A stretch of 42,242 bases of DNA from Terriglobales bacterium. Lineage in GTDB: Bacteria; Acidobacteriota; Terriglobia; Terriglobales; Acidobacteriaceae. The stretch lies in assembly GCA_035517535.1 (NCBI GenBank), contig DATIYR010000125.1:1-42242 (forward strand), read 5' to 3'. The notes under the pieces are model-generated. The model was not told where the DNA came from. It saw only the letters and a program-made list of their open reading frames with translations, and did no database searches. Numbering within the stretch: the first letter of the stretch is position 1; each line of letters starts with the position of its first letter. Positions 9,631 through 40,378 of this stretch are shown piece after piece. Both the position numbers and the translations under genes were made by a program.

Positions 9631-9650
9631 CGCTCCCGCCTGCTCGAACA

Positions 9651-14617: not shown

Positions 14618-15334
14618 TCAAGCGCATGCGCTCCAATAGTGCGGCGCAGACTTGAGTTGCACGGGACAATCCAAAGGCCAAGCGGCGGCAATGGTGCGAA
14701 CAAAACCACCACTCTGTTGCCACCACCCATGGAAGACGAGACCGCTTCCGTTGTGAATTCGCAGCCGACTCCAGCCGTTGATATCGCCCGAATCGGCTTC
14801 GTCTTCAACGGCTAACGATCGGGTGTCAATACGCAACCCTTCATGTAACGCTTTAAGTACGCTTTCCTTCGCACTCCAAAATAGCGCCACCAGGCGCATC
14901 CGACTTGGCGCTGGTGCAGCCGCAATAAACTGCTGTTCGTGTTCCGTAAAGTAGTCAGCGACAAACGCCGCGCTATGGGGCTCGACCAATTCAAGGTCGC
15001 ATCCCAGCGCGACATCGCCGTTTGCAACTGTGCAGAGAGATCTGCCCGCGCGATGGCTAATTGAAATCGGCAACTTCAGCGGACGTTCTTCAAGAAATAC
15101 TTCGGGTGCGCCGGAAGCAGCGGGGCGTATCTCTATGCGCGCCAAAACCTCGGGACGAAACGGTAACTGCAAATACCAAGCGACCGCGCACTTCGCAGTC
15201 CAACGTCCCAGCCGCCAGTCAGAGCGCCGCTTCGGAATGACAAAAGACTTGAGCCGGAGGAGTTCGGTTTCGCTGAAGAATTCGTCGTTCGTCGGTACGT
15301 CGGATTCGGTCTGCTCCAACCAATAAACATGCAT
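14618..15334 (-). CDS. Sfp/EntD-type 4'-phosphopantetheinyl transferase
   Basis: 238 aa. ..RRSDWRLGRWTAKCAV.., ..ISISHRAGRSLC.., ..LGCDLELVEP.. and ..FWSAKESVLKALHEGL.. match the conserved PPTase-superfamily motifs (G-x-D, W-x-x-KE-x-x-x-K). Confidence 0.85.
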   Translation of the reverse strand: MHVYWLEQTESDVPTNDEFFSETELLRLKSFVIPKRRSDWRLGRWTAKCAVAWYLQLPFRPEVLARIEIRPAASGAPEVFLEERPLKLPISISHRAGRSLCTVANGDVALGCDLELVEPHSAAFVADYFTEHEQQFIAAAPAPSRMRLVALFWSAKESVLKALHEGLRIDTRSLAVEDEADSGDINGWSRLRIHNGSGLVFHGWWQQSGGFVRTIAAAWPLDCPVQLKSAPHYWSACA

Positions 15335-26900: not shown

Positions 26901-29583
26901 TCGGTCCGACTTCCACGAATACGCGAGCGCCTGCCTCATACAGCGTGCGCAATCCGGTCACGAACTGCACCGGCGATGCCACTTGCTGGGCAAGAATATC
27001 CAGCATCTGCGCCACGACATTCGCACCCGTGGGATAGAATTTTCCATTTGTGTTGGCAACAATTGGCAGCTTGGCCGGCTGCAGGTGCAAACGCTCGAGC
27101 ACGCGCCGCAAGGGTTCGCTCGCCGGTGCTACGATCGAAGTATGGAAGGCGTGACTCACCGGCAGTGGTGAAACTTCATAGCCCGCCTTCTGGAAGATCT
27201 CCATCGCCTGCTCGACGGCCTTGCTGGCGCCGCCAATTACTGATTGGTGTTCGCTGTTGATGTTGGCGATCACTACATAGCCATCGATCGCCTTGAGCAG
27301 ACGTTCGATTTCTTCGAGCGGCGCGAACACCGCAGCCATGCGGCCGTTATCCGCTACCGCGAACTGCGTCATTTCACGTCCGCGGGCGCTGACCGCTTCA
27401 AGCGCGTCGGCGAATGGCAGCGCATCGGCTGCGACCAACGCGCCGTATTCTCCCAGGCTGTGACCCATCGTAAAGTCAGGCGTGATACCGTATGCCGCGA
27501 GCAGGCGGGTCAACGCAAGATCCGCGGCGAGAACTGCCGGTTGCGTGATGGCAGTCTGCCGCAGGTCGTCTTCCGCTTTTGCCACTACCTCATCGTTGCC
27601 GCGATCAACAAAGATGAAGTCCGTGAGTGGTTTGCCCAGCAGCGGCATCATCACGCGATCGGCCTCAGCGAAGACTTCAGCAACGATGGGCTCCGAGTCG
27701 CACAGCGGCTTAAGCATGTTCACGTACTGTGAGCCCTGGCCTGGATACAGGAACGCAACTTTCTGTGAAGCACCGTGACCACGAAAGATGCCTTGCGCAC
27801 GAAGAGCTTTCCAGATGGCGGGCTGATTGGCAGCAAACGCCTTAAGCGCGCTTGCCGCTTTTGCGGACAAGTCTGCGGCGTCGGCATAATCGATGGCGAG
27901 CCGTTCCGGCGCATGCACGTCGGCTTCCGCCGGCGCGGATGGAGCAGGAACAATCCCCGATTTCGCATCTTTTTCTGCGGCGCGCAGGCGGTCGATGATA
28001 TCGCCTTCAGAAGTAGCTCCGATTACCAGTGCGCCGCGTAATGGAGACTTATAAGAAGATGCGGCGGAAGTTGACGCCTGTTTTGCGGTCATACCGCCTT
28101 CCACACTTTTCGCAGCAGCCTCAGTCACAGCGAACGGCGTCTTTCCGTTCCCATTCAACCTGTGTGGGATGTATTCCTCGAGCACGGCATGAAAATTCGT
28201 TCCGCCGAATCCAAAAGCGCTCAAACCGGCACGGCGCACGCCATCCGGAGGGACCGTCCACGCCTTCAGCTCGGTGTTGACGTATAGTGGCGAATGCGCG
28301 AAATCGATGTCCGGATTCGGGTGCTCGCAGTGCACGCTCGGCGGCAGCACTTTATCGTGCAGAGCAAGTGTGGCTTTGAGGAATCCCGCTGCTCCAGCCG
28401 CGCCTTTCAAATGTCCAAAGTTCGACTTCACAGACCCGAGCCCAACCAAGTGGGCCGGCAAATGATAGGTGCTGAGCACTTCGGCCAGGCTCTGTACTTC
28501 GACCACATCGCCTACGCGTGTTGACGTTCCGTGGCCTTCAAAGTAAGTCGCCGTCGCGGGTGACAACCCTGCGTTTTGCCATCCGCGTTCAACCGCGAGC
28601 TTTTGGCCAATGGGATTGGGCGCAGTAATTCCTTTCCCTTTTCCATCACTTGAGCCACCCATGCCGCGCAGCACCGCGTAAATTTTGTCGCCGTCGCGCT
28701 CAGCATCGGCGAGCCGCTTCATCAGAAAAAGTGCGGCGCCTTCGCCCATCACGAATCCGTCAGCACCTTCCGCATAAGGACGTGTCCCCGTTGCCGAGAG
28801 GGCGCCAATCTTGCAGAACTTGACGAACGTTGACGCACCCATGTTGCGATCGATACCGCCGGTGACTACCGCATCGAAATCTTTTTCGACCAGACCCTCG
28901 ACGGCCGAACTCATCGCCGCCATGGCTGAAGCGCAGGCGGCGTCGCAGATGTAATTCGGTCCGTGAAAGTTGAAAACGTTCGCGATTCTTCCGGCAATGC
29001 AGTTCGAGAGTTCTCCCGGCATGCTGTCTTCGGTGACTTCGGGAAGATATTTGGCCATGCGCTCGTGTAATTCGCGGGTAATCTCTTTGCGCAACTCTTC
29101 CGGCAGATTCGCGAAGCTGGTGACCCCTGACAGCTCGCGAGCGTACTCAGGAAAATAAATGCGGAGCGAAGTCAGATAATGCTTTTCGCCAGCCATAGCG
29201 TTGCCGAGAATCACCGCCGTGCGGTCCGGATTCAGCGGGCGATTGGGATAGCCGAAATCTTCGAGCGCCTGGCGAGTGCAGGCAATCGCCCATTTTTGCG
29301 CACCATCCATCGCGTCAACCACACGCGGTGGGACGGGCAAATGCCACTTGATCGGGTCCCACGTGAACTCGCGCACCCAACCGCCGATTTTCGAATATGT
29401 CTTATCAGGGGCTGCGGGATCGGGATCGTAATAAAGCGCCGGGTCCCAGCGTTTGGGATCAACTTCGGTTACGCTGTATCGTCCGTTCTTGATGTTTTCC
29501 CAAAACGCAGAGACATTTGGCGCATCGGGCAGAACGGCACCAAGCCCGACGATGGCGATGGCTCGGTATGAAGTGTTTTCCAT
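20986..29583 (-). CDS. PUFA-synthase (PfaA)-like iterative type I polyketide/fatty-acid megasynthase: KS-AT-KS-ACP-ACP-ACP-KR-DH
   Basis: 2865 aa. AGGAG Shine-Dalgarno 7 nt upstream of the ATG. Domain motifs are listed in the sub-features below. No ER, TE or MT domain recognised. Confidence 0.95.
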   Translation of the reverse strand: MENTSYRAIAIVGLGAVLPDAPNVSAFWENIKNGRYSVTEVDPKRWDPALYYDPDPAAPDKTYSKIGGWVREFTWDPIKWHLPVPPRVVDAMDGAQKWAIACTRQALEDFGYPNRPLNPDRTAVILGNAMAGEKHYLTSLRIYFPEYARELSGVTSFANLPEELRKEITRELHERMAKYLPEVTEDSMPGELSNCIAGRIANVFNFHGPNYICDAACASAMAAMSSAVEGLVEKDFDAVVTGGIDRNMGASTFVKFCKIGALSATGTRPYAEGADGFVMGEGAALFLMKRLADAERDGDKIYAVLRGMGGSSDGKGKGITAPNPIGQKLAVERGWQNAGLSPATATYFEGHGTSTRVGDVVEVQSLAEVLSTYHLPAHLVGLGSVKSNFGHLKGAAGAAGFLKATLALHDKVLPPSVHCEHPNPDIDFAHSPLYVNTELKAWTVPPDGVRRAGLSAFGFGGTNFHAVLEEYIPHRLNGNGKTPFAVTEAAAKSVEGGMTAKQASTSAASSYKSPLRGALVIGATSEGDIIDRLRAAEKDAKSGIVPAPSAPAEADVHAPERLAIDYADAADLSAKAASALKAFAANQPAIWKALRAQGIFRGHGASQKVAFLYPGQGSQYVNMLKPLCDSEPIVAEVFAEADRVMMPLLGKPLTDFIFVDRGNDEVVAKAEDDLRQTAITQPAVLAADLALTRLLAAYGITPDFTMGHSLGEYGALVAADALPFADALEAVSARGREMTQFAVADNGRMAAVFAPLEEIERLLKAIDGYVVIANINSEHQSVIGGASKAVEQAMEIFQKAGYEVSPLPVSHAFHTSIVAPASEPLRRVLERLHLQPAKLPIVANTNGKFYPTGANVVAQMLDILAQQVASPVQFVTGLRTLYEAGARVFVEVGPKKALQGFAEDVLGPRGDVTWLFTNHPKVGDIISFNQALCCLYAAGLGCGTPDTNEVAVTTASAETPKTTRMYRPAPSQAIAAKKERTAASGAVKSFSTPSSNGDRYVELGHLFEEVLERGWQITHGKTPAANDEPVVVTGAALGLPGSEHIFDDSNIARLLRGDQFIDAIPTRFRRAMLDKHITRLVKSDDGGGNFETITDVADVIKLAGRAGAFDLENEFGVSADRRASLDRDTQLAIAVGLDALRDAGIPLVLHYKTTSKGTKLPDRWVLPDSLRDETGVIFASAFPGLDSFADEMSRYYADHARREQLAGLQSLRARVTETNGYSILAQEIDRRIEELCDILERQPYVFDRRYLFRVLPMGHSQFAEFIGARGPNTQINSACASTTQAIALAEDWIRDGRCSRVIVIAADDITTDNLIDWFGAGFLASGAAATDEVVEEAAVPFDRRRHGMIIGMGAAGLVVESAEAARGRGIQPICEVLSAVTANSAFHGTRLDVQHIGQVMETLIATAEARSGIDRNQIAPRTVFVSHETYTPARGGSAAAEIHALRQVFGKAADQIVIANTKGFTGHAMGAGVEDVLAVKSLETGIVPPVANFKEVDPELGTLNLSKGGAYPIEYALRLGAGFGSQISMTLLRWFVTKDGVRRSPKALGYSYRIADQEAWAKWLSRLAGHENADLEVVHRTLRVRDEAARGAHVTKDADAVPLPAVKAKPAILIETAVVKPVAQVSATPAIQKASSVAVAEAQPQAEVKVAAAPPVPLPQAAPTNKGSAEDSVKDRILALVVEKTGYPKEMLDLDLDLEADLGVDTVKQAEIFASIRETYNIPRDENRKLRDYPTLGHVIRFVYEKRPDLADSANAVSPPSSIKVEPKEPPSVSKTSESKPEIAAAAKSTATTPANGDAVKERILDLVVEKTGYPKEMLDLDLDLEADLGVDTVKQAEMFAAIREIYNIPRDENRKLRDYPTLGHVIRFVYEKRSDLAAAPAAAKSEITSESVQERAKPQHAPVSTAPTIEAIKERVLEIVAEKTGYPKEMLDLDLDLEADLGIDTVKQAEMFAAVRASYNIPRDENLKLRDFSTLAHVIKFAQDRAGGQSASAPAKEEADRKPAPAPVEGKKTPRPEPANFDAANKVPRRVPIPMLRPPLDICKPSGVKLEHGKRVIVMPDKAGVAQKLAQALREKGVEVLLIESAPTADSIVTQIENWAMAGRIDGVYWLPALDSEGQLTTMDLNAWHEAVRMRVKLLYATMRKLYEHIAKPGTFLVSATRLGGQHGYDAAGAAAPLGGGVVGFTKAYKRERPDAFVKAVDFEIECKPEEIAALLIEETLCDPGAIEIGYKNKLRWTIGLEEQPAADGQPGIALDENTVLLITGAAGSIVSAITADLAAASGGTFYLLDVVPEPDPNNPDLKLFVSDREALKRELFSRIQARGERATPVMMEKELAALERAHAAQTAIDAVRAAGGTAKYFSVDLTNAEAVERIIREVRDHSGRVDFLLHAAGIERSRPLSEKQPAEFDFVFDVKSDGFFNLLRAIGNMPLAATVVFSSIAGRLGNSGQTDYSAANDLLCKITSSFRTTRLQTRGIAIDWTAWGGVGMASRGSIPKIMEAAGIDMLPPEAGVPIVRREVTEGGTRGEVVIANRLGVLAKEWDDSGGIDLAATNGEKASATRKPMLGKIASSGVLTPLTIKTTLDPKVQPFLYDHQIDGTPVLPGVMGVEAFTEAALVPLPGWHVESVEQVDYHTPFKFYRNEPRTVTVENVIHPDGDGLVADCKLIGCRSLPNQIEPQVTTHFTARVRLTRETQKPSSVPKIGTPSGNVVNRKEIYGLYFHGPAYQVIEKAWWDGDRIIGLMANNLPNNHVPPESQTVAAPRLIELCFQTAGVWEMGVQGWMGLPLHIDSVSLFGARENVADPLYAVVTRVPDEDKFDAEIVDGKGNCYLRLKGYRTVAVPNAVDKERLAKLQGAMALEAVAA
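20989..21890 (-). other. PKS domain DH (polyketide-type double hot-dog dehydratase)
   Basis: FLYDHQIDGTPVLPGVMGVE (HxxxGxxxxP; His codon 21796-21798), later YGLYFHGPAYQ. Confidence 0.8.
22021..23420 (-). other. PKS domain KR (structural + catalytic subdomains)
   Basis: Rossmann motif LLITGAAGSIVSA (22741-22800). Catalytic Tyr in QTDYSAAN (codon 22222-22224). Confidence 0.85.
23626..24561 (-). repeat. Three tandem in-frame ACP-domain coding repeats (periods 381 and 339 nt)
   Basis: ..[DE]R[IV]L[ADE][LI]V[VA]EKTGYPKEMLDLDLDLEADLG[VI]DTVKQAE[IM]FA.. occurs three times, separated by Ala/Pro/Ser linkers. The DNA copies are roughly 80% identical by eye. Confidence 0.9.
24982..26502 (-). other. 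PKS domain KS2 (second, FabF/FabB-like ketosynthase with intact Cys-His-His)
   Basis: QINSACASTTQAIA (Cys1279, codon 25747-25749), VSHETYTPARGGSAAAE, ANTKGFTGHAMGAGVED. A long insertion lies ahead of the active-site Cys. Confidence 0.8.
26881..27765 (-). other. PKS domain AT (malonyl-CoA:ACP transacylase type)
   Basis: VAFLYPGQGSQY, GHSLGEYGA (Ser709, codon 27457-27459), VSHAFHT. Confidence 0.9.
28171..29565 (-). other. PKS domain KS1 (PfaA-type ketosynthase)
   Basis: DAACASAMAAM (Cys217, codon 28933-28935), EGHGTSTRVGD, KSNFGHLKGAAG. Ends GGTNFHAVLEEY. Confidence 0.9.
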
Positions 29584-29633: not shown

Positions 29634-31313
29634 TCACGCCGCCCGCTCAGCTTTAGCCGCGCGGCCATACAAAACGTCGGCTACATAATCCATATCTGTA
29701 ATCAAGCCAGCTTGCGCACTGTGCGTCGCGGGCAAATTCACTGTTAACTCAAATGCCGGTAATTCGGAGTTGCTCAGGCCGCCCGCCCCAATCAACCAAC
29801 GCAGACCACCCTCAGCAACTTTGAGCGCCGCATCGCGCGCACAAATCCTGCTGATCGCTGCCAGCCCGGCTTCATCAAATCGCCGGTTGGTTTTTTCGTT
29901 CAGTTTGTTTTCTGCCATCAGAGCTGCACGTCGCGCCAGACTGCCCGCGCATTCCGCGTAGGCGATCAACTCGCCGAGGCGAAGGAGAATGTGTTGATAG
30001 CGAGTAAGTCGTGCGACGCGCGTCTTCTCCATAATTTCCGCGAGCGCGTGCATCGCCAGCGCGGCATGGTCGGATCCAACTTTTGGATGTCGCCGATGCA
30101 ACTCTTCAAATTTCTTCGCCTGATCGTGATAATGCTGGCCACGTGTCTTCAAATGCGTCTGCCAGCGATCGCGGGCGATGGTCATCTCCATGATCTCGGA
30201 AGTGCCTTCGTAAATGATGGTGATGCGCACGTCGCGGCTGATCTTCTCCACCATGTACTCGTGCGTGTAGCCGTATCCGCCGAGCGCCTGAATGCTGGCC
30301 TCAGCCGCAGCATTCCCTGCTTCTGTCGCCATATACTTCGCGATCGCGCCTTCGGTATTGAGGCTGCCTTCGCCCGCGTCGATACGCTCGGCAGTTTCCT
30401 CGATGTAGGCACGCGCGGCTTCGAGTCGCACCACGTTGGGCACGATCAGCTTATGGGTGTAGCCTTGCTTTTCTGACAGCGGCGCGCCGGCTTGAATGCG
30501 CTTCGTCGAGTATGGGATGGCGCGATCGAGAGCCGACCATCCTGCGCCGAGACCAAATGCAGCCACCATCAGGCGCGTGTAGCCAAATACAGCCTGCGCC
30601 TGAATCAAGCCCTGACCTTCGACGCCTCCAACCAGTCGGTCCGCCGGAACGAAAACGTTATCGAGCGCCAGCGCCGCGGTGTTGCTCAGACGAATGCCGT
30701 GTTTATCTTCCGGCTCATCATGCGTGAAGCCTTTCAGTCCTTTTTCGAGGATGAACCAACTGGGACCACTCGGGGTGTTGGCCAGCACCGTGTACGCGTC
30801 AGCGATGCCGCCATTGCTGATCCATTGCTTGTTGCCGGTGATTTTGTAACCAACAATTTTGCCGTCTTCGATCACCCGCTCAGCCGTCGTGCGCAGCGCG
30901 CCCAGGTCACTACCGGCCTCGGGCTCTGTCGCGCCGTAGGCAAAAAGAATTCCTTCTTCCGCAATGTGCGACAGCCAGATCTTTTTTTGCTCCGGCGTGG
31001 CGCCGACGGTGATGGGATCGCTGCCGAGAAAGGTTGCAAGCACGGAAGTGGCGACGCCTAGATCGATGCGGGCCATCTCCTCGCACACGCAGTACACGTC
31101 GAAGGTGTTGCCGCCCATGCCGCCATACTCTTCGGGAATGAATAAAAGCTGAATTCCCAGCTTGTCCGGGCTGCACATGTGGTGGACCACATCGAGTGGA
31201 CATTCGTCTTTTTCGTCCAGCTCGATCAGGGTTTCGTCGGGCAGACGCTTTTTCGCGAATTCGCGCAGCGATTTCAAGCTCAACTTGAGTGTTTTGGCGG
31301 TAATCATTGTCAT
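29634..31313 (-). CDS. Acyl-CoA dehydrogenase with a C-terminal extension of about 170 aa
   Basis: 559 aa. ..[17 protein letters not shown].., ..[10 protein letters not shown].., catalytic-base region [12 protein letters not shown]. Starts 4 nt after the etfA stop. The ATG at 31307 is an alternative start with better Shine-Dalgarno spacing. Confidence 0.9.
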
Positions 31314-31317
31314 CTCC

Positions 31318-32304
31318 TCATTTCGCAGCGACGCCGTGCAGTTCGCGAACTTTGCTGGTCATCTCGGGCAGGAACTCGAGAATGTCATCGATGATTCCCA
31401 CGTCCGCCACTTGAAAAATTGGGGCCTTGGGATTTTTGTTGATGGCGATGATGAACGGATTGCCTTTCACCCCGGCCAAATGCTGCGACGAACCGCTGAT
31501 TCCGCAGGCCATATAAACCTTCGGCTTCACTGTTTTTCCTGACGAACCCACCTGGCGCGATTTTTCCAGCCATTTGGCATCGACCACCGGACGCGAGCAG
31601 GAAACCGCCGCGCCCATAGCTTCGGCAAGCTCCTCTGCGATCGGAACATTGTCTTTTTCTTGTATGCCGCGGCCGATCGAAACCAGGACCGGGTACTTGG
31701 TGATATCAACGTCGCCAGATTCGGCCATGATCGTCTGCAGGTAACGCCGCCCTGCTGTGAGCGGGCCAACTTCTGCGGACTTGTCGATTACTGCCCCGGC
31801 CACCGCTCCGGCTTCTGTGGACTTGAACGCGCCGGGGCGAATTGTGATCACAGCGCCGGAGGAAATATCACATTTCATATGCGCGCTGACCTGGCCTCCG
31901 AATTCCTGGCGGACAACCTTGAGAAATGTGCTCTCGACGCCTTCGATCTCGACGACATCGGAAACATAGGCCGCGTTCAACTTGATGGAAAGTCCGGGAG
32001 CGAGATCGATGCCGAAGTGCGCGTGTGGAATTAGAAAAACGCTGTCCGGCGGAAGCACTTTGACCAGCGCCTTCCGGATCAGTTCCGCATTGGGATACGC
32101 AAGCACGTCGTACGAAATTTTCCAGACCTCTTTGTATGAGGCACAGACCGTTGTGCAAGCGGTTTCCAAGTCCGAACCCGCGCCGCTAACGATGGCGGTA
32201 ACTGGAGCCGCCGGATCAATCTGCCGTGCCGCGGCCAAAAGCTCAGCAGCGGAGTCGTCGACCACGCCGCCTCTATGCACGATGTAAGTGAAAATTGCAG
32301 GCAT
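31318..32304 (-). CDS. etfA: Electron transfer flavoprotein, alpha subunit
   Basis: 328 aa. FAD-binding C-terminal signature ..[43 protein letters not shown]... 1-nt overlap (TAATG) with etfB. Confidence 0.9.
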
Positions 32305-33095
32305 TATTTCAACCCTCCTTTGGCTGCGACCAACTCCAGAACCTTGTCAATGTTTTCTTCGCGGCTTCCTTCGAGAATTTCAGCGCCTTTACCGACTGTG
32401 GGCACGAAGTAATCAATGCGTTGCACCTTTGCGGCTTTAGCACCGACTGAGTTCGGATCAAGCCCCAAATCAGAGACGCCGTAAGTCGCGATCGGAACGG
32501 AAGCGACCGCGCGAATACCTCGCATTCCGACATATCGCGGGTCGTTGATACCGGTCTGAATTGAGAGCACGCATGGCAGGTCAATTTCGCTGATCTCTTT
32601 GTTCCCGCCTTCAATTTCGCGGCTGATTTTCAGCTTATTGCCATCAATCACTTCGATCGCGCTGACAAGAGAGGCGAATGGATAGTCGAGCATCGCCGCC
32701 AGCATGCCGCCAACTTCCGCCGCGCCCGCCTCGGCCTGAACACCGGTCAGGATCAGGTCGTAACTACCTTGTTCGACAAAGCGCTTGAGGATCGCCGCGA
32801 TTCCGCGTCCGTCTGAACCGGCGAAGGTATCGTCGGAAATCAGCACGCCGTGGTTGGCGCCCATTGCCATCTCGCGGCGCAACACCTCTTCGTCATCTTC
32901 GTTGCCGACAGTGACCACGGTGACCTTCCCACCCACGCGTCCGACGATCTGCAGCGCCTCTTCGACCGCGTAGTTGTCCGGTTCGTTAATTGAATAAACC
33001 AACTCATCGCGCTCGATATCGCTGCCGGCAGCATTGAGTTGAATCTCGTTTTCCGATGTGTCGGGTACTCGCTTTACGCAAACTAGAATTTCCAC
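32304..33095 (-). CDS. etfB: Electron transfer flavoprotein, beta subunit
   Basis: (V)EILVCVKRVPDTSENEIQL.. is the typical EtfB N-terminus. I place the start at the GTG at 33095, with GGGAGG 5 nt upstream and 2 nt after the Fe-S protein stop. The track start at 33116 is another GTG that overlaps the upstream gene by 19 nt. Confidence 0.9.
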   Translation of the reverse strand: MEILVCVKRVPDTSENEIQLNAAGSDIERDELVYSINEPDNYAVEEALQIVGRVGGKVTVVTVGNEDDEEVLRREMAMGANHGVLISDDTFAGSDGRGIAAILKRFVEQGSYDLILTGVQAEAGAAEVGGMLAAMLDYPFASLVSAIEVIDGNKLKISREIEGGNKEISEIDLPCVLSIQTGINDPRYVGMRGIRAVASVPIATYGVSDLGLDPNSVGAKAAKVQRIDYFVPTVGKGAEILEGSREENIDKVLELVAAKGGLK

Positions 33096-33097
33096 AA

Positions 33098-35221
33098 TTA
33101 CCTCCCTGCAACGCACTCTGCCTGCATTTCGAACGTGCTCTTTGTCTGCGGCGGAATTTCGCGGACCATCTGCTGCTCTGCCAATTCGGCAATGTCGATC
33201 GCCGTCATCTTTCCTTCTAAACCAGCGACTTTGATTGCGTCTTCAATGTTGGCCATGCAGAACGGGCAGGCCGTGACGATCACATTCGCCCCTGCTTCGG
33301 CCGCCATACGCACACGCTTGACCCCGATGCGCTCTTCCTCTTTCGGCTCGTAAAACAGCATCAACCCACCTCCGCCACAACAAAACGACCGGTCGCGCGA
33401 ACGCTTCATTTCAACTCGCCTCAGGCCAGGAATCGCATCCAGCACCTCGCGCGGATCGTCGTAGATTTGGTTATGGCGGCCTAGGTAGCACGGGTCGTGG
33501 TAGGTATAAACCTTGTCGCCTTCGATCGGATTGAACTTGACCTTCCCTGCTTTGACTCCGCGCGCAATCACCTGGCTGATATGCTCAACCGGCGGTACAT
33601 TCTTGTAGTCATGCTTGAGGGCGTTAAGCGCGTGGGGATCGGCGGTGACAATCTTCTGCACGCCGGAAGCTCTAATCGCCTCGGCATTTTGGTCGCGCAG
33701 TGAAATGAACAGCAGTTCTTCCCCGAAGCGTCGAACCTCGTGACCGCTGTCTTTTTCGGCCGCGCCCAAAATTCCGAAGTTTTCCCCAATGTGTTCGAGG
33801 ATCTTGGCCGTGGCGCGCCCAATGGAGTGCATGCGCTCGTCGTAGGACGTGATACTGTCCACGAAATAGAGCGTGTCAGCGCCGTTCTTGTCGAGGGTTT
33901 TCACGCGGCAGGTCTGCTGGAAATCTTTGGCATTGATCCAGTCGCTGCGCTTTTTCTCCATCTTGCCGTAAGGATTGCCGCGACTTTCGAGCGCCTTCAG
34001 CGGCTTCTGCAATGACTGAGGAACGCGCCCTTCATCGACCAGACCTCGCCGCAAATCGACAATCTTGTCGATGTACTCAATCAGCAACGGACACTCTTCC
34101 TCACAAGCGCCGCAGGTCGTGCACGACCAGATTTCATCCTCGGAGTAAATACCGCCGACCAGCGCTTTGCCATTTCCTGTGGGGCCGAACATCGGATAGT
34201 GCTGGAAGGCATAGTCGCGAGCCTTAATGGTCAAGAAACGCGGCGAGAGCGGACGTCCAGCCGCATTCGCTGGGCAATTGTCGGAGCAGCGTCCGCAGTC
34301 GGCGCAGGAATAAAAATCGAGCATGTGCTTCCAGGTGAAATCTTCAAACGTTTTCACGCCGAAGGACGTCAATTGATCCAGGTTCTCTTCGCTGACATCC
34401 CAGCGCACCGGCTTCAGAACTTCGCGATCGAGTTTCGAGAAGTAAACATTGAACAGAGACGTTTCAACATGGAACTGGATCCCAAATGGCCGGTAGCAAA
34501 GCAAGAAATAGAACGTAATCTCGTGGAGCAGATATCCGGCGAAGCAAAACTGCCCGATGCTCGAGAGTGATGCGGACACAAAGACCGTCTTCAACAGCCA
34601 GGGCAGCGAGTATGCGGCGGAGAAATGAGCGATCTGTCCCGCCTGCATCTGCCCCGCGGCTTTCGCGGCTTCAAACAAGCTGTCGGCGAGCATCAGAATC
34701 GCGATGAGTGCCAGCAGAAAAACCGCATCTGCTTTATGCGCCTTGCCAAACTTCGAAGGCACTTCGTAGCGCGCGGGCTTGAATACCACGCGGCGCACGA
34801 TAGCAAAAATCATGCACAGGAAAACGACCGTGGCGGCGTAGTCGGTCACGACTTCGTAGACGTGGCCGAGTTCCCCGCGCATTCCTGGCATTACAAAGTC
34901 AGGGGACGTGCCCAGGATCAGCACAGTGAAGGCGCGCATTGCGAGGAGAATGAATCCGGCGAAGAAGAGAATGTGAACAGTGCCGGCGACTTTGTAGCGA
35001 GGATGCTTCCACTGCCCCAGCCAGAACTTGCCCACTCTGCCCAGCCGCTCTAAAGGATGATCAAAGCGCAAATCACTTTGCGCTCGAACTAGCGGCACCA
35101 TCCTTCGCATCACGATGTAAGCGAAGCTTCCTACTCCAAGAAAATGAATGCACAGAAACAGCGCGTATCCCGGGGCAAGCCAGGATCCCAATTGCGCCGC
35201 AGCCTGAGTACTCGCCACCAT
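33098..35221 (-). CDS. Membrane-anchored Fe-S oxidoreductase (HdrD/GlpC-like, two 4Fe-4S motifs + CCG domains); ETF:quinone oxidoreductase-like
   Basis: 707 aa. About 6 N-terminal TM helices with conserved His. CADCGRCSDNCP and CTTCGACEEECP ferredoxin-type motifs. Cys-rich CCG-type regions (..SFCCGGGG.., ..HDPCYLGRHN.., ..VTACPFCM..). Confidence 0.85.
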   Translation of the reverse strand: MVASTQAAAQLGSWLAPGYALFLCIHFLGVGSFAYIVMRRMVPLVRAQSDLRFDHPLERLGRVGKFWLGQWKHPRYKVAGTVHILFFAGFILLAMRAFTVLILGTSPDFVMPGMRGELGHVYEVVTDYAATVVFLCMIFAIVRRVVFKPARYEVPSKFGKAHKADAVFLLALIAILMLADSLFEAAKAAGQMQAGQIAHFSAAYSLPWLLKTVFVSASLSSIGQFCFAGYLLHEITFYFLLCYRPFGIQFHVETSLFNVYFSKLDREVLKPVRWDVSEENLDQLTSFGVKTFEDFTWKHMLDFYSCADCGRCSDNCPANAAGRPLSPRFLTIKARDYAFQHYPMFGPTGNGKALVGGIYSEDEIWSCTTCGACEEECPLLIEYIDKIVDLRRGLVDEGRVPQSLQKPLKALESRGNPYGKMEKKRSDWINAKDFQQTCRVKTLDKNGADTLYFVDSITSYDERMHSIGRATAKILEHIGENFGILGAAEKDSGHEVRRFGEELLFISLRDQNAEAIRASGVQKIVTADPHALNALKHDYKNVPPVEHISQVIARGVKAGKVKFNPIEGDKVYTYHDPCYLGRHNQIYDDPREVLDAIPGLRRVEMKRSRDRSFCCGGGGLMLFYEPKEEERIGVKRVRMAAEAGANVIVTACPFCMANIEDAIKVAGLEGKMTAIDIAELAEQQMVREIPPQTKSTFEMQAECVAGR

Positions 35222-35275: not shown

Positions 35276-36868
35276 TCACGCGACCATTTGGCTAACGCCT
35301 TGCTGCTCCCCACCGGACACACTCGACTGCCCCGGTTCACCCGAAAGAGGACGCATTGTCTGGGGGATCGAACCATTCTTGCGCGGCCGAAAGACAGATG
35401 CCGTTACCGCGGACGTCGCCTGTTGTTTTCTCGACCGCCGTTTTTCATCGTGCGAAGGAGGCATCCCTGCCGCTTCGCGCAGTTCAGCAAAACTCACCTT
35501 CAACAATTCTTCCAGTCGCCGCAGATCCGGCACGGCATGAACGTCACCGCTGAAACCGAATCCGATGTTGCCGTCGTAACTTAAAACGGCGCAGTTCATC
35601 GCCATTTCGCCGCCCACCGGAACATAGGGATACCAGCGCAGCATCTTGTGCCCCAGCAGGTGCAGCGGATACTGCGGTCCGGGCACGTTCGTGCAAACCA
35701 TATTGAAGGGCGTAACCGGTAACCGGCTCAACACGGGACCGATCGCCGCCTGCACTCCGGTTGGCAGCATTCCGATTAATCCAGCGCTGAGGCTGACCAA
35801 CTCGGCCGCGTGCGCTTGCTTCAGGAACTCCGTTCTCTGGTGTACCGCCATCAAGAGTTTCTTCGGATCGCGAATATCGAGCGGAACCGTGACCGGAACC
35901 AGAGAAATGCGGTTTCCCAGTTCGCTGCCGTGATTGCTTCCGCGCAGATTCACCGGAACCATCATGCGGAACAGCCGGGCTTGCACGAGTTCGCCGTGCA
36001 GTTCCAGATATCGGCGGACCGTGGCCGTGACCAGCGCCAGAATGACGTCATTCACGCTGACCCCAAAGGTGTCTTTAATTACTTTCACTTCCTCAAGCGG
36101 CACATCCGCCCAGGCAAATTTTTGCGGCCCGCGGTACAAAGTGTTGAAACGCAGCCGCTCGGTGAAAGCGGTGATCTCCGGCAACAGCTTCGAGAGTTCT
36201 TCAGTAGGCACAAGCTGGCCGCCGTTTATGGCCGCGCGCTCACCCATGCTCAGGACATCAGCCATGGCCGAAAAGATTCGCTTGACAAGATCCGAATAGG
36301 AATCGACGACGCCGGTGGTCAAAGAGGTCAGAGTGTCAGGAGGTGGCGGAACTTCGAACCGGAATTTCCGCTTCGGCAGATGCGGAACCGCCGGGCTTGC
36401 GTCGAACAACACGTTCATCAGAGCCACACCAGCTATGCCATCGGCGAGGCAGTGATGCAGGCGAAGAATAACCGCCGTGCGATTGAGTTTGAGGCCCTGC
36501 ACCAATGTCATGTCCCAGAGCGGATGTTTGCGATCCATGAGCTGGCTGAAAAGCTTCCCGGCAACTGCTTTCAGTTCATTGTCCGTACCGTAGCGGAGTT
36601 TCTCCTCGCGAACATGGCGCGTAATGTCGAACTCGGGATCGTACTCCCAGCTGGGAAGCCCCATGCCGAGCGGCGCAGAAACTACACGCTTGAGATACCG
36701 CGGAAGAACCGGCAGCTTCGATTCGACAAACCGGATGCACTCCCGCAGCGAAATCTTTCCTTCAAACGTGCATACGCTGGCCACGTTCAGCGGCATTCCT
36801 TGGCGCTCCAGATGCAGGAAGACCGTGTCGCCCCAGGACAGGCGGTCGCTTTGTTCGCGGTTCTCCAT
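35276..36868 (-). CDS. Wax ester synthase / acyl-CoA:diacylglycerol acyltransferase (WS/DGAT)
   Basis: MENREQSDRLSWGDTVFLHLERQGMPLNVASV.. with active-site HHCLADG (36437-36457). Start set to the ATG at 36868 (AGGAGA 5 nt upstream, 8 nt after the STAS stop). The 648-aa track ORF is a read-through. 530 aa, including a low-complexity C-terminal tail of about 70 aa. Confidence 0.9.
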   Translation of the reverse strand: MENREQSDRLSWGDTVFLHLERQGMPLNVASVCTFEGKISLRECIRFVESKLPVLPRYLKRVVSAPLGMGLPSWEYDPEFDITRHVREEKLRYGTDNELKAVAGKLFSQLMDRKHPLWDMTLVQGLKLNRTAVILRLHHCLADGIAGVALMNVLFDASPAVPHLPKRKFRFEVPPPPDTLTSLTTGVVDSYSDLVKRIFSAMADVLSMGERAAINGGQLVPTEELSKLLPEITAFTERLRFNTLYRGPQKFAWADVPLEEVKVIKDTFGVSVNDVILALVTATVRRYLELHGELVQARLFRMMVPVNLRGSNHGSELGNRISLVPVTVPLDIRDPKKLLMAVHQRTEFLKQAHAAELVSLSAGLIGMLPTGVQAAIGPVLSRLPVTPFNMVCTNVPGPQYPLHLLGHKMLRWYPYVPVGGEMAMNCAVLSYDGNIGFGFSGDVHAVPDLRRLEELLKVSFAELREAAGMPPSHDEKRRSRKQQATSAVTASVFRPRKNGSIPQTMRPLSGEPGQSSVSGGEQQGVSQMVA

Positions 36869-36876
36869 AAACTCTC

Positions 36877-37191
36877 CTATTTCTGCTCGAACGAATTCAT
36901 CCAGTTCAGCTCGCGAAACGAAAGCCGCGATGCCAGCTTCACCAGTTTGAGCGCTTTGTACACGTGCACGTTCACGCCAAGTAAAACCACCGTGATTCCT
37001 TTCTCCTCTGCCACGCATATGAACTCTTCCATGGCAGGAATGGCGCTGGCATTGATCCGGCGCACGGCTGAAAAATCCATCACAACCTCGCGAATATTGT
37101 CGGCCAGCATCTCGCTGGCTTTTTCCAACATTGAAGCTAGCTGCGCTTCGTCGAGATTTCGCAACACCGAAACTGTTGCCATAACATTCAT
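36877..37191 (-). CDS. STAS-domain protein (SpoIIAA/anti-sigma-antagonist fold)
   Basis: 104 aa. ..VVMDFSAVRRINASAIPAMEEFICVAEEKGITVVLLGVNVHVYKALKLVKLASRLSF.. follows the STAS consensus (lvlDlsgV.fiDSsg...l......g..l.l.gv...v...l...gl...f). Starts 2 nt after the adhE stop. Confidence 0.7.
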   Translation of the reverse strand: MNVMATVSVLRNLDEAQLASMLEKASEMLADNIREVVMDFSAVRRINASAIPAMEEFICVAEEKGITVVLLGVNVHVYKALKLVKLASRLSFRELNWMNSFEQK

Positions 37192-37193
37192 CC

Positions 37194-39857
37194 CTAGGCG
37201 GTCTTACCGTGCTGGGCAGCAACCACGTCTGCCGTGCCGCGACCCGAGTATGCCTTCCAAAACAGTTCGACCAATTCCTTCACTAACGGCATGCGCGGAT
37301 TCGATCGCCACGAAGGATCGTTGTAAGCCGCATCGGCCAGCTCAGGCACTGCGCGCTCGAATTCTTCTTTCGAAATACCTAGCCCCGCAATGGAGTGGGG
37401 GAAATCCAGTTTGTCGAGCAACTGCTCAACCGCGGCAATGAGCTTGTTTATCTTTTCTTCAACCGTCGTTCCACCGAGACCCAGCAGATCCGCTACCGTG
37501 GCGTATTTTTTATGCGCGACATATCCCTGGGTGTAAGGCGAGGGCATAAACTTTGCCGGCACGGCCGCGTTGTAGGCAATCACGTGCGGCAGCATGAGCG
37601 CGTTTGCCCGGCCATGCGCAACAGCGAAACGCGCTCCGAACGCGTGCGCCAGCGCGTGATTCACTCCCACGGAAGCATTCGAAAATGCCATGGCGGCAAT
37701 GCACGCGGCGTTGTGCATCATGGTGCGTGCCTCTTCGTCCTGGGGATACTCGTACGCGATCGGCAGATATTTAAAGACGAGCCGGATCGCCTGCATGGCA
37801 TAAGCGTCCGTGTACGGCGAGGCATAATTCGACACTCCCGCCTCGAGTGCATGCGTCAGGCAATCGATGCCGGTATCTGCCGTGAGCCCTTTCGGCATGG
37901 ACATGACGAATTGCGGATCGACAATCGCGACGTCCGGTGTCAATGAATAATCAGCCAGCGTGATCTTGCGGCCATGCTTTTTATCGAGAAGAACTGCGAA
38001 CGGCGTAACCTCGCTCCCAGTGCCGCTGGTGGTGGGAATCGCGATCAGTCGGGCCTTGATCACCTTCTCAGTCGGAAACTCAACTACGCGTTTTCGCAGA
38101 TCGAGGAACGGAGCTGCGAGTTCTTCGAGATCTGCGTTCGGCGACTCGTATTTGAGCTTCATGATCTTCGCCGCATCGATCACCGAACCGCCGCCCAGCG
38201 CAATGATCTGATCGGCCTGATAAAACTTCAGCCCTTCCACCCCCTCTAACACGACCTTCGCTTCCGGTTCCGCGTCCGGAATCACGGAAAGGTGAACGTG
38301 GGTCTCCGGCGGGATGTAGCGGCGCACAATATCGACGAGTCCCATTCGCTCCAGCGCCGGATTAGTCAGAACAATGGTCGAGCGCGATGCGAATTGCGCC
38401 ACGTTCTCGACCGCATTCATGTTGAAATAAATATGGTTGGGCACGCGGAACCACATATGTGCTTGTGTCCTTCGCGCAACGCGCTTGATGTTGAGATAGT
38501 GATAGATGTTGACGTTGTCAGTGGTGCTGTTACCCCCGCCGGTGCCGCAACCAAATGCGAATGTGGGGACGAGATCGTTGTAAACCGCGCCCAGGGCACC
38601 AATCGAGCCCGGTGAGTTCACGATGATCCGCCCGGCGTTGATCACCTCGCTGAACTTGCGAATGATTTCGTCGTTATGCGAGAAAATAACCGCGGTATGC
38701 CCGAGCCCGCCGGCGTGGTTCACATCCACACAAACCTTTAACGCTTCTTCCGAGGATTTCGCACGATAAACCGCGAGCACAGGGAAAAGCTTTTCAACCG
38801 AGAGCGGATGATCGGCTCCCACGCCCTGAATCGGCGCCACCAGAAGTTTCGTTCTCGGCTTGACCGTTAATCCGATAAAGCGCGCTATCGCGGTCGCTTT
38901 CTGGCCGACCGCCATGGGCTGCATGAACCCGGTCTGTGGATCGATCACCGTGCGCGCCAGCAGCCTGGTTTCTTTTTCATTGCAGATGTGCGCGCCCAGC
39001 TCAGCAAACTTTTTAAGGGCGGCATCGTAAATCTCATCGTCGATGACGACCGTCTGCTCGGAAGCACAGATCGTTCCGTTGTCGAAGGTTTTCGAGATGA
39101 TGATGTCGACGATCGCAGCATTCAGATCGGCGGTCTTCTCCAGATAAACGGGCGTATTCCCTGCGCCCACTCCTAACGCTGGCTTGCCCGAGCTGTAGGC
39201 TGCTTTCACGGCGTTCGGTCCGCCGGTGGCATCGATCAGCGCCACATCTTTGTGGTGCATCAGGTAGGCATTGTCTTCCAGCGTGTGGGTCCCGAGGCAG
39301 GCAAAAACCCCTTCAGGCGCACCATGCGCAACGGCTGCTTCGTACATCACCTTTACCGCTTCCGAGCAGCACGCCCAGGCTTTCGGGTGCGGGCTGAAGA
39401 TCACGGCATTCCGCGTTTTCAGCGCCATGATGCACTTGAACAGAACTGTGGAGGTGGGATTGGTGATCGGCAGCATGGAGAAAATCACGCCGATCGGTTC
39501 GGCCACTTCGACCAGATTGCGCTCGGGATACTCGCGAATGATGCCGACAGTTTTTTTGTCTTTTATGTAGTTGTAGGCAAACTCGGTGGCCACCATGTTC
39601 TTGATGACCTTATCTTCGAAGACCCCGAGTTTGGTCTCCTCAACGGCAAGCCGCGCCAAGTGCTGCGCCTGCTCAAGCCCGGCGAGCACCACCGCCTTCA
39701 CTATGCGGTCCACTTCTTCCTGGGTGAATTGGCCAAACACCGCGGCCGCGGTGCGCGCTTGAGTGACGATCCGTTCGAGATAAGCGATCCGTTCTTTGCT
39801 GAGTTCTTCCGCATCCGCTGGAGCGGGCGGCTGTTCGACTGCTTCACTTGCGATCAT
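37194..39857 (-). CDS. adhE: Bifunctional aldehyde (CoA-acylating) / alcohol dehydrogenase
   Basis: 887 aa. The N-terminal ALDH domain has catalytic Cys in SKTFDNGTICASEQ. The C-terminal part is an iron-type ADH domain (..FGCGTGGGNSTTD.., ..GVNHALAHAFGARF..). Collinear with AdhE over the full length. Confidence 0.95.
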   Translation of the reverse strand: MIASEAVEQPPAPADAEELSKERIAYLERIVTQARTAAAVFGQFTQEEVDRIVKAVVLAGLEQAQHLARLAVEETKLGVFEDKVIKNMVATEFAYNYIKDKKTVGIIREYPERNLVEVAEPIGVIFSMLPITNPTSTVLFKCIMALKTRNAVIFSPHPKAWACCSEAVKVMYEAAVAHGAPEGVFACLGTHTLEDNAYLMHHKDVALIDATGGPNAVKAAYSSGKPALGVGAGNTPVYLEKTADLNAAIVDIIISKTFDNGTICASEQTVVIDDEIYDAALKKFAELGAHICNEKETRLLARTVIDPQTGFMQPMAVGQKATAIARFIGLTVKPRTKLLVAPIQGVGADHPLSVEKLFPVLAVYRAKSSEEALKVCVDVNHAGGLGHTAVIFSHNDEIIRKFSEVINAGRIIVNSPGSIGALGAVYNDLVPTFAFGCGTGGGNSTTDNVNIYHYLNIKRVARRTQAHMWFRVPNHIYFNMNAVENVAQFASRSTIVLTNPALERMGLVDIVRRYIPPETHVHLSVIPDAEPEAKVVLEGVEGLKFYQADQIIALGGGSVIDAAKIMKLKYESPNADLEELAAPFLDLRKRVVEFPTEKVIKARLIAIPTTSGTGSEVTPFAVLLDKKHGRKITLADYSLTPDVAIVDPQFVMSMPKGLTADTGIDCLTHALEAGVSNYASPYTDAYAMQAIRLVFKYLPIAYEYPQDEEARTMMHNAACIAAMAFSNASVGVNHALAHAFGARFAVAHGRANALMLPHVIAYNAAVPAKFMPSPYTQGYVAHKKYATVADLLGLGGTTVEEKINKLIAAVEQLLDKLDFPHSIAGLGISKEEFERAVPELADAAYNDPSWRSNPRMPLVKELVELFWKAYSGRGTADVVAAQHGKTA

Positions 39858-39994: not shown

Positions 39995-40378
39995 TTAGGC
40001 GTAATCAATCGGGTGCTTGGCAAGCCAGTGTTCATCACGCACCCGGGACATTTTCTTCAGGGCAGACCGGGTCGCGCTGGCCGCCAAACGCCGGCCCTGC
40101 CAGGTCATACCTAATCCAAATCCGATCATGCCGTCGATCAAGCCCAACGCCAACACCTGCCCCGGCGATCGATAATGTTTTCGCGCATTGCCGATCATGC
40201 CGATGCAGCTTCCAATTGCCGCGGGTATTAACGCTTTGCGGACTGAATCCTTAAGAAACGGAGTAAGAGGTTTACCATCCAGAAATGCTTCCCGGCCGGA
40301 CCGAGTTCCCTCCAGCCCAGCATCCAGAACCTTGCGACCGTATTCGAGTTCCGACTCTAACCAGGTCTCCACACCCAT
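39995..40378 (-). CDS. Hypothetical small protein with Gly-rich hydrophobic segments
   Basis: 127 aa. GAGGTGA Shine-Dalgarno 4-5 nt upstream of the ATG. Segments ..IPAAIGSCIGMIG.. and ..LALGLIDGMIGFGLGM.. look like glycine-zipper membrane helices. No family recognised. Confidence 0.5.
   Translation of the reverse strand: MGVETWLESELEYGRKVLDAGLEGTRSGREAFLDGKPLTPFLKDSVRKALIPAAIGSCIGMIGNARKHYRSPGQVLALGLIDGMIGFGLGMTWQGRRLAASATRSALKKMSRVRDEHWLAKHPIDYA

Follow-up and report, generated by a model that had tools for sequence, protein, structure and literature searches.

A spare quinone-linked chain in a soil acidobacterium probably gives respiratory electrons to a lipid synthase lacking an enoyl reductase

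Four tightly packed minus-strand genes in the 42-kb stretch of acidobacterial DNA analysed here (the window) encode a membrane Fe-S oxidoreductase (EMO), the two subunits of an electron-transfer flavoprotein (EtfB and EtfA) and a long acyl-CoA dehydrogenase (ACAD), and they run into the gene of a lipid synthase without an enoyl reductase (ER). They comprise two evolutionary units with separate histories, the ACAD with its synthase and EMO-EtfBA, which have merged into one operon segment. Judging from the genes, we see about an even chance that the ACAD is the synthase's trans enoyl reductase and receives its electrons from menaquinol by way of EMO and Etf.

The gene calls and spacing of the EMO-EtfB-EtfA-ACAD segment were confirmed, as was every gene family (Pfam and NCBIfam):

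33098 to 35221, minus strand: EMO/EtfD-family ETF:menaquinone oxidoreductase, 707 aa
32304 to 33095, minus strand: EtfB, 263 aa from the GTG at 33095 (PF01012, 2.5e-41)
31318 to 32304, minus strand: EtfA with FAD-binding domain, 328 aa (PF00766, 1.4e-33, plus PF01012)
29634 to 31313, minus strand: long ACAD of VLCAD-like architecture, 559 aa (three ACAD Pfam domains)
20986 to 29583, minus strand: ER-less "Type R" synthase, 2865 aa, KS-AT-KS-ACP3-KR-DH; proposed client of the ACAD
15353 to 20953, minus strand: single-chain acyl-CoA carboxylase (context; belongs to the conserved core)
14618 to 15334, minus strand: PPTase (context; belongs to the conserved core)
35276 to 37222, minus strand: WS/DGAT (context)
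37194 to 39857, minus strand: AdhE (context; NF010378, 1134.6 bits against a cut-off of 951)

The spacing is as originally predicted. EtfB starts at a GTG preceded by AGGGAGG (SD), 2 nt past the EMO stop, the EtfA ATG shares 1 nt with the EtfB stop, and 4 nt separate the EtfA stop from the ACAD. At the two ends, 54 nt lie between the WS/DGAT stop and the EMO start, and 50 nt between the ACAD stop and the PKS ATG (29583). No terminator-like sites were found within the 2-nt, 4-nt and 50-nt gaps or the 1-nt overlap. Because the four-gene arrangement was found again in dozens of species-level genomes, it is not a chance pattern. WS/DGAT and AdhE are both present in 44 of the 64 loci with enough flank; here, translation of WS/DGAT probably begins further downstream than the listed TTG, since the Pfam domain starts only at residue 131. 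Other genes of the window encode an esterase, a second VLCAD-type ACAD and enzymes of the glyoxylate shunt.

In agreement with the original prediction, the KS-AT-KS-ACP3-KR-DH synthase lacks an ER domain, nor was a gene of ER type recognised in any annotated ORF of the array. The synthase's KS2 region and the C-terminal domain of the ACAD occur in the identical 8 of 201 phylum-sample genomes, always adjacent. Of the 80 best genome loci, 79 have the synthase after the ACAD, an order also seen on one metagenome contig. Even in lineages whose cluster consists only of ACAD-PKS-(ACC)-PPTase, the ACAD is still attached to the synthase. On these counts (8/8 genomes, 79/80 loci), the long ACAD is strictly synthase-linked. 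The pfaA-like KS-AT-KS/CLF-ACPn-KR protein followed by a PPTase is also the plan of the Type R cluster of Ca. Koribacter, Ca. Solibacter and others (Shulse & Allen 2011, PMC3098273), and a carboxylase gene lies between synthase and PPTase as in Koribacter. In that paper "acyl-CoA dehydrogenase" and "electron transfer flavoprotein" have no occurrences and no membrane Fe-S protein is mentioned. We found no published description of this pairing of ACAD, Etf and EMO with a synthase.

The ACAD had been described as keeping its YEGTSE region and carrying an extra C-terminal domain of about 170 aa, and both features are present:

30195 to 30212, minus strand: YEGTSE with the catalytic-base Glu369 (ACAD residues 368-373)
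29637 to 30170, minus strand: C-terminal helical domain, 178 aa (ACAD residues 382-559)

YEGTSE is invariant in 30 orthologues. No Pfam family matches the extension (382-559), and the VLCAD-type families PF21263 and PF21343 do not recognise it. This helical domain, found in only 294 clusters among 1.84 billion representatives, is a marker of the synthase-linked ACAD subfamily. In fold, the AF2 model (pLDDT 86.7) comes closest to 3OWA, human VLCAD and 2Z1Q (about 570 columns, TMq 0.74-0.80), so that, as modelled, the extra domain matches the VLCAD type. The likeness to VLCAD/ACAD9 and the bacterial long ACADs extends over the whole chain, including the C-terminal helical domain and the catalytic Glu within YEGT, but the subfamily seen here is small, occurs only beside the synthase and has a C-terminal domain outside both Pfam families.

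The history of EMO-EtfBA is different. An adjacent Etf/EMO is absent in 5 of the 8 synthase-bearing genomes of the phylum sample, so this second unit is not required for synthase function. Within a class sample of 401 genomes, a close EMO lies 3-5 kb off on the same strand in 19 of the 20 ACAD-bearing genomes; all 19 close EMO homologues, from 4 families and 14 genera, adjoin this ACAD, and no EMO-EtfBA module was found without the synthase. In the ACAD tree, unlinked sequences surround a single clade (SH-like support 97) that holds all 74 linked ACADs, which requires one state change. EMO-EtfBA was added to the ACAD-synthase pair once and has been kept since. Thus, the single module originally proposed does form a near-contiguous operon segment, but one made of two units with different histories.

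In complete carrier genomes, the cluster's EMO-EtfBA is a supernumerary copy. At least two EtfA are found in each of five carriers (G147, G179, G127, G139 and G056), each of which also has a cysteine-complete EMO or an ETF-QO; the synthase genomes that lack the module (G089, G119, G059 and G101) have one EtfA. Our own assembly is 76.6% complete, and the cluster's EtfA is the sole one found in it. Some EMO is present in 8 of 8 synthase genomes, compared with 109 of 201 overall in the phylum sample. Close relatives of EMO-EtfBA in other classes (48-59% identity) lie beside unrelated ACADs without a synthase, one of them in an operon that also encodes a CoA-transferase and alcohol and aldehyde dehydrogenases, which shows a generic, possibly catabolic, module. 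For the earlier idea that these genes may supply enoyl reduction, the genome comparison supports a functional tie to the ER-less synthase, as the ACAD is strictly synthase-linked and the supernumerary EMO-EtfBA was recruited once and kept.

The EMO combines a NarI-like membrane domain with an HdrC-like two-cubane domain and an HdrB-like non-cubane-cluster domain (Pfam CCG and Fer4), and it matches M. smegmatis EtfD 9OJN (E 1.4e-86) over both its membrane and cytoplasmic parts. Its cluster motifs are:

34271 to 34306, minus strand: first CxxCxxCxxxCP motif, cubane [4Fe-4S] (EMO C306-P317)
34088 to 34123, minus strand: second CxxCxxCxxxCP motif, cubane [4Fe-4S] (EMO C367-P378)
33257 to 33490, minus strand: sole complete CCG motif (C578, C614, C615, C652, C655)
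33629 to 33856, minus strand: degenerate N-terminal CCG region (residues 456-531)

With 707 aa against 706 aa in SaEMO, it shares the three-domain plan, the two cubane motifs, the proximal non-cubane CCG motif with its His, and a gene adjoining etfBA. Residues His83, His233 and His251 occupy the SaEMO heme-ligand positions H87, H233 and H251 (bioRxiv 10.64898/2026.08.18.745454). Both CxxCxxCxxxCP motifs had been correctly predicted; the estimate of about six transmembrane helices gives way to five, predicted from the homologous S. aciditrophicus EMO, whose structure is solved, and hydropathy at the threshold used gave four clear hydrophobic stretches. Of the CCG-type clusters originally noted, one motif is complete and would hold the proximal non-cubane cluster FeS3, but the N-terminal motif is without any cysteine. 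Alignment to 9OJN places S456, D491, S492, D528 and A531 at the FeS4 ligand positions, with H530 retained (Ms H583, Sa H534). According to column counts in 86 homologues, the distal cluster FeS4 has lost its four cysteines to S, D, D and A throughout the subfamily, whereas the cluster at this site is [4Fe-5S] in SaEMO and a linear [3Fe-4S] in MsEMO. Unlike SaEMO and M. smegmatis EtfD, this protein is a second copy within a biosynthetic gene array.

Two EtfB segments bear on the type of Etf, by the criterion of PMC8958531 (Thr94/Thr97; DGDTAQ and DDDxNQ motifs):

32787 to 32834, minus strand: DDTFAGSDGRGIAAIL, with Gly and Ile at the bifurcating-Etf Thr94 and Thr97 positions
32697 to 32756, minus strand: LILTGVQAEAGAAEVGGMLA, the "zipper" segment, neither bifurcating DGDTAQ nor group-1 DDDxNQ

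EtfB lacks the invariant Thr of DGDTAQ, and among PDB entries it matches best the beta subunit of W3A1 ETF, which binds AMP; the Etf partner of the solved EMO is AMP-binding as well (bioRxiv 10.64898/2026.08.18.745454). As EtfB lacks the bifurcating signatures, Bcd/Etf-type bifurcation is unlikely. The motif check that had been suggested thus points to a non-bifurcating EtfB, but EtfA scores highest against a bifurcating EtfA and EtfB retains the small Gly that gives a second flavin room, so that on sequence the classification is not clean.

The mechanism we favor would start with trans-2-enoyl thioesters, carried on ACP or, as originally assumed, on CoA, from the KR and DH of the synthase. 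The VLCAD-type ACAD, its obligate partner, would most likely perform the missing reduction in trans and yield saturated long chains, with electrons passing from menaquinol through the FeS4-less EMO and a dedicated, non-bifurcating EtfBA. The genome has MqnA/MqnD and therefore makes menaquinone. The E0' of menaquinone is about -74 mV and that of enoyl/acyl thioesters about -10 mV, which makes the direction from menaquinol to the enoyl thioester downhill. A private Etf/EMO pair may keep these reducing electrons apart from beta-oxidation and its housekeeping Etf route; in lineages without it, the housekeeping Etf and EMO would serve the ACAD.

A reductive direction with a non-bifurcating Etf has precedents (PMC8805022, PMC12630350). 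EMO/ETF/ACAD chains connect acyl-CoA/enoyl-CoA chemistry to (methyl)menaquinone, as the original prediction correctly stated, and in S. aciditrophicus the same three protein types work reductively, from quinol through EMO, non-bifurcating ETF and ACAD to enoyl-CoA (PMC8805022). There the direction is demonstrated as "enoyl-CoA respiration", and the chain belongs to energy metabolism, with short CoA esters, methylmenaquinone and formate cycling; here it is proposed, and electrons would go to the chain being built by a lipid synthase, in an acidobacterium that makes menaquinone. This background now needs updating, since EtfD serves aerobic beta-oxidation in menaquinone-using mycobacteria and EMO/EtfD is thus not anaerobe-specific (PMC8593149, PMC13083937). 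Bcd/EtfAB, CarCDE and AcrABC also employ an ACAD-family enzyme as Etf-dependent enoyl reductase, the putative role here. However, AcrC, the best NCBIfam match of the ACAD core, scores 230.7 bits, far under its cut-off of 640, EtfB has no bifurcating motifs, and a membrane quinone oxidoreductase takes the place of NADH and ferredoxin as electron partner.

The same genes could also work oxidatively. The ACAD might oxidise long-chain acyl-CoA, for example from the cluster's own storage lipid freed by the esterase, and pass electrons through Etf and EMO to menaquinone. Such a dedicated catabolic chain would match what EMO/EtfD has been shown to do in menaquinone organisms (PMC8593149, PMC13083937), the related FeS4-less EMO-EtfBA modules beside other ACADs without a synthase, and the esterase, second VLCAD-type ACAD and glyoxylate-shunt genes of the window. 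We consider it unlikely: no hydratase, 3-hydroxyacyl-CoA dehydrogenase or thiolase is among the annotated ORFs of the window, the ACAD stays with the synthase even where the cluster has only ACAD-PKS-(ACC)-PPTase, a housekeeping Etf outlet already exists in the carriers checked, and every occurrence of the module within the class comes with the synthase. Nor are we inclined to see the ACAD as a tailoring dehydrogenase that, like MbtN, TcsD or LipB-type enzymes, would put a specific double bond into an ACP- or CoA-bound chain and would then send electrons through its private Etf/EMO to menaquinone. Its catalytic Glu is intact, the oxidative direction is standard for Etf and EMO, and to our knowledge all characterised ACAD-family enzymes of PKS/NRPS clusters are dehydrogenases and none is a reductase. 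Yet the cycles of the synthase already end at the enoyl stage without an ER, leaving no saturated C2-C3 bond unless another reductase acts first, and with menaquinone (predicted from MqnA/MqnD) as acceptor the oxidative step would be uphill by about 64 mV.

That lipid genes merely cluster, with Etf/EMO working in general metabolism, seems very improbable. The lone EtfA of our incomplete assembly would fit, but the single-origin recruitment kept in all 74 sampled descendants, the 19/19 exclusivity in the class sample, the second Etf in complete relatives and the near-zero intergenic distances all argue against it. A housekeeping FabI/FabK-type reductase may instead act in trans as the enoyl reductase, or the iterative synthase, having no ER, may just produce a polyene.

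To the published description of the Type R cluster (PMC3098273), our analysis adds an obligate ACAD partner and the recruited Etf/EMO. From the gene evidence, a spare quinone-linked chain of a soil acidobacterium probably gives an ER-less lipid synthase respiratory electrons.

The genes considered here lie on the minus strand in a co-directional array that runs, in order, orf127, AdhE, WS/DGAT, a 707-aa membrane Fe-S protein, EtfB, EtfA, a 559-aa ACAD, a 2865-aa synthase, a single-chain carboxylase, a PPTase and an esterase. The positions used below, with two flanking features, are:

41141-42241, minus strand: second ACAD, VLCAD-type (PF21263), upstream of the array and running off the window end
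39995-40378, minus strand: orf127
33098-35221, minus strand: membrane Fe-S protein
32304-33095, minus strand: EtfB
31318-32304, minus strand: EtfA
29634-31313, minus strand: long ACAD
20986-29583, minus strand: synthase, an ER-less PKS of "Type R"
6537-9630: isocitrate lyase and malate synthase genes, divergent, downstream of the array

The tight spacing described in the original prediction is correct: EtfB shares 1 nt with EtfA, the ACAD follows EtfA after 4 nt, WS/DGAT lies 54 nt from the Fe-S gene, and the synthase lies 50 nt from the ACAD. The Fe-S gene ends in TAA (33098-33100), and 2 bases on, EtfB begins with a GTG at 33095 that is preceded by AGGGAGG. A scan for promoter-like and terminator-like sites listed none in these intergenic gaps, with site counts at chance level. 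At the array head, orf127 has no Pfam match and contains two Gly-rich hydrophobic stretches; it is kept at 41-64% identity in a similar position in about 30 related loci, some of them without AdhE and WS/DGAT, and it is divergently oriented in one genome (G147). Because the second VLCAD-type ACAD and the isocitrate lyase and malate synthase genes flank the array, the neighborhood is rich in fatty-acid and acetate metabolism.

Both features predicted for the long ACAD are present, namely the catalytic YEGTSE region (residues 368-373) and a C-terminal extension, which measures 178 aa. Its three ACAD domains, catalytic Glu and additional helical domain at the C-terminus make it a protein of the VLCAD type. 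An AlphaFold2 model built with 30 orthologues reached a pLDDT of 86.7, exceeding 90 over most of the C-terminal domain, and its best whole-length fold matches were B. anthracis 3OWA, human VLCAD and T. thermophilus 2Z1Q (TMq 0.74-0.80 over ~570 columns), whereas ordinary 380-aa ACADs reached a TMq of only 0.62. No Pfam model matches the C-terminal domain, which is recognized by fold alone. Among 1.84 billion representative proteins it occurs in just 294 clusters, many of them fragments. Two of the proteins (P0041, 614 aa; P0108, 581 aa) start with this domain, after which their sequence turns into a garbled version of the synthase N-terminus. Both have the look of gene calls that read through a frameshift on a high-GC contig, not of true fusions.

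Judged by its sequence, the membrane Fe-S protein is an EMO/EtfD, a member of the ETF:menaquinone oxidoreductase family. It matches the solved M. smegmatis EtfD (MsEMO, PDB 9OJN) with an E-value of 1.4e-86 across both the membrane and the cytoplasmic parts, its NarI-like membrane part aligning over residues 68-344. In size and domain layout it resembles the solved S. aciditrophicus protein (SaEMO), whose 706 aa comprise five transmembrane helices (up to residue 260), then a cubane domain (261-405) and, from residue 451, a non-cubane-cluster domain (bioRxiv 10.64898/2026.08.18.745454). His83, His233 and His251 fall at the heme-ligand positions H87, H233 and H251 of SaEMO; among 68 rows at ≥60% identity, the His233 column holds Asp in five and Ser in one. 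Of the cysteine motifs originally predicted, the two CxxCxxCxxxCP motifs stand (306-317 and 367-378, in an HdrC-like cubane domain), but the CCG clusters reduce to a single complete CCG motif. Each row listed in the EMO alignment has Cys at all eight cubane positions.

This single motif supplies a complete ligand set for FeS3, the proximal non-cubane cluster (C578, C614, C615, C652 and C655, together with H530). The distal cluster, FeS4, is held in MsEMO by C503, C538, C581 and C584. At Ms C503, C538/T539, C581 and C584, the window's EMO has S456, D491/S492, D528 and A531, so that the FeS4 cysteines are missing while the neighboring H530 is retained. FeS4 itself differs between the two solved EMO members, and the window's EMO is without its cysteines. 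We aligned 86 homologues from the retrieved loci: the cysteine-less pattern is shared by all complete rows at ≥45% identity, and 10 of 11 more distant, "housekeeping" acidobacterial EMOs retain the cysteines. One distant EMO outside the close subfamily (37% identity; locus L016, G165:C2, ~9995-11989) also lacks them, with an S-S-S pattern; FeS4 may have been lost more than once, or the FeS4-less clade may be wider than sampled. In the solved EMO:ETF complex, FeS3 and FeS4 lie at equal distances from the ETF flavin (bioRxiv 10.64898/2026.08.18.745454), so an EMO without FeS4 need not be blocked in electron transfer, for which FeS3 is a plausible route. Whatever the role of the ACAD, this clade widens the cofactor variability of the two solved EMO structures and could serve as a natural experiment on whether ETF needs the distal cluster to pass on its electrons.

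The window's Etf is probably non-bifurcating, as judged by published motifs (PMC8958531; PMC12630350). In bifurcating (group 2) Etf, Thr94 and Thr97 of EtfB contact the second FAD, and a T94,97A variant binds AMP instead; the D and T of the DGDTAQ motif are each present in 100% of 216 bifurcating Etfs (PMC8958531). Here, and in nearly all orthologues, the two Thr positions are Gly and Ile, and the DGDTAQ site reads AEAG-AAE in the window and AEDG-(G/A)AQ in the clade consensus, both one residue short and without the Thr. Within this zipper (32697-32756, minus strand), the window's AEAGAAEVGG departs from the AEDG(G/A)AQVGG of nearly all orthologues by replacement of both Asp and Gln. EtfB is free of bifurcating signatures, but the signals for the Etf group are mixed, since the DDDxNQ motif of group 1 (human or Paracoccus type) was sought in EtfB and is absent. 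Rankings against the PDB are ambiguous too: EtfA scores highest against a bifurcating EtfA, but the top match of EtfB is the canonical, AMP-binding W3A1 ETF, a protein that likewise lacks DDDxNQ. Because of this EtfB match, AMP binding is likely. The Etf partner of the solved EMO also binds AMP (bioRxiv 10.64898/2026.08.18.745454).

We then asked how closely these genes are tied to one another. A scan for the ACAD C-terminal domain, at one genome per species, returned at least 557 loci, and we examined the best 80, nearly all labelled Acidobacteriota or Terriglobia and many from peat, bog and palsa MAGs. Among these 80, the synthase follows the ACAD in 79, and the remaining contig stops at the ACAD; EMO-EtfBA lies upstream in 66 of the 68 with ≥4.2 kb of flank, and AdhE and WS/DGAT are present in 44 of the 64 with ≥8.5 kb. 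In an outgroup-rooted ACAD tree (FastTree), all 74 linked genes form one clade with SH-like support of 97, nested among unlinked genes, and one state change suffices. An even sample of 401 genomes from the class contained the ACAD domain in 20 and a close EMO in 19 of the same 20; none of the 401 had a close EMO without the ACAD. In each of the 19, the ACAD and the EMO share a contig and strand, at a distance of 3-5 kb, and the pairs span four families and 14 genera. Two loci (L037 and L086) carry the array at acidobacterial identity (ACAD 82-84%) in MAG records assigned to Xanthobacteraceae and Eremiobacteraceae, an apparent case of mis-binning.

Across the phylum, the array falls into two units that evolved separately. 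We sampled 201 genomes evenly, and the same eight have both the C-terminal domain of the ACAD and the KS2 region of the synthase. Each of these has the ACAD immediately ahead of the synthase, in a conserved core of ACAD-PKS-(ACC)-PPTase. EMO-EtfBA is upstream in only three of them, all from one family (f1), and was absent within ~16 kb in G089, G119 and G059. In the opposite case, EMO-EtfBA modules with 48-59% identity to that of the window sit beside unrelated ACADs and have no synthase with them, in six genomes (G056, G127, G139, G083, G007 and G042). We therefore rejected descent from one ancestral four-gene module: the ACAD goes with the synthase, and EMO-EtfBA moves on its own. General EMO homologues (~30-40% identity) are found in 109 of the 201 genomes, a count that takes in the unpublished genome G024 and is the only result here to draw on it. 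One synthase-free operon (L008, G127:C1:76633-96632, 233-9771, plus strand) encodes an acetyl-CoA hydrolase/transferase, Fe-ADH, ALDH, a 604-aa PF12806-type ACAD, FeS4-less EMO, EtfB and EtfA, and may be an alcohol or acid redox pathway on the same kind of spare electron chain.

The copy numbers point to a spare chain. Complete genomes with the FeS4-less module have two EtfA copies (G147, G179, G127, G056) or three (G139), and the second Etf is partnered by a cysteine-complete EMO (G179, G127) or a canonical ETF-QO (G147, G139, G056). Synthase genomes without the module have one EtfA (G089, G119, G059, G101) or two (G063). The window's own assembly, which is 76.6% complete, holds one EtfA, one CCG protein and one ETF-QO, the last a canonical protein with a 576-aa frame (G000:C21:3174-3485, L003). 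Its single EtfA had suggested that the array's Etf is the housekeeping one, a reading we discarded because complete relatives have a second copy; its housekeeping etfBA probably lies in the 23% that is unassembled.

The synthase has the domain order KS-AT-KS-ACP3-KR-DH, and its second KS retains the active-site Cys. The pfaA-like KS-AT-KS/CLF-ACP(3-6)-KR gene and the downstream PPTase place it in Type R. All three ACPs (23626-24561; PKS residues ~1701, 1828 and 1941) read DLG(V/I)DTVKQAE. The Thr in this sequence takes the place of the Ser expected to carry phosphopantetheine, and it is invariant in 23 aligned ACPs of relatives. Complex prediction for the ACAD and a synthase ACP gave run scores of 0.53, 0.00 and 0.00, which count neither for nor against an interaction. 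Known trans enoyl reductases of PKS and PUFA synthases have an FMN TIM-barrel (PfaD/FabK type) or an MDR fold (LovC/MDR type). The candidate has an ACAD fold instead and, if it is the reductase, would be of a different kind.

We favor the reading that the ACAD supplies the synthase's missing enoyl reduction, because it is strictly paired with the synthase, the synthase has no ER, and the window's annotated ORFs include no other β-oxidation genes. The window's genome encodes MqnA/MqnD and therefore makes menaquinone, from which the quinol-to-enoyl direction is downhill. Electrons would pass from menaquinol through EMO and EtfBA to the ACAD, and from there to an enoyl thioester on an ACP or CoA carrier. 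That direction has been demonstrated in Syntrophus for the same three protein types (PMC8805022), and in Fusobacterium a canonical Etf drives crotonyl-CoA reduction (PMC12630350). A catabolic chain, in which the ACAD oxidises its substrate and electrons take their usual direction, could be built from the same proteins; given the pairing and the lack of companion β-oxidation genes, we consider it less likely. We give about the same weight to the ACAD being a tailoring dehydrogenase, its synthase having no ER of its own, and both rivals are still live. Once recruited, the private Etf/EMO was kept without loss in every linked genome examined; the best explanation is that this electron flow needs insulating from housekeeping β-oxidation.

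Type R clusters were catalogued in 2011 in a paper whose text mentions no ACAD, Etf or Fe-S protein (PMC3098273), and our literature search found no description of an ACAD as partner of a Type R synthase. The FeS4-less subfamily, Etf typing, copy-number pattern, single-origin tree, class-level exclusivity and VLCAD-type fold are added here. If the ACAD is the reductase, it would join the known kinds of trans enoyl reductase as the first of ACAD type for a FAS/PKS-type megasynthase, and would show how a widespread, uncharacterised family of ER-less lipid synthases finishes its reduction cycle. More tentatively, menaquinol rather than NAD(P)H might drive enoyl reduction in the bulk lipid synthesis of peat and soil Terriglobia and, with AdhE and WS/DGAT, neutral-lipid synthesis might serve as a respiratory electron sink, or "lipid respiration", when oxygen is scarce. 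Already on the favored reading, a soil phylum that ranks among the most abundant would have its lipid synthesis coupled straight to the quinone pool, which matters for how oxygen-limited peat stores carbon and balances redox.
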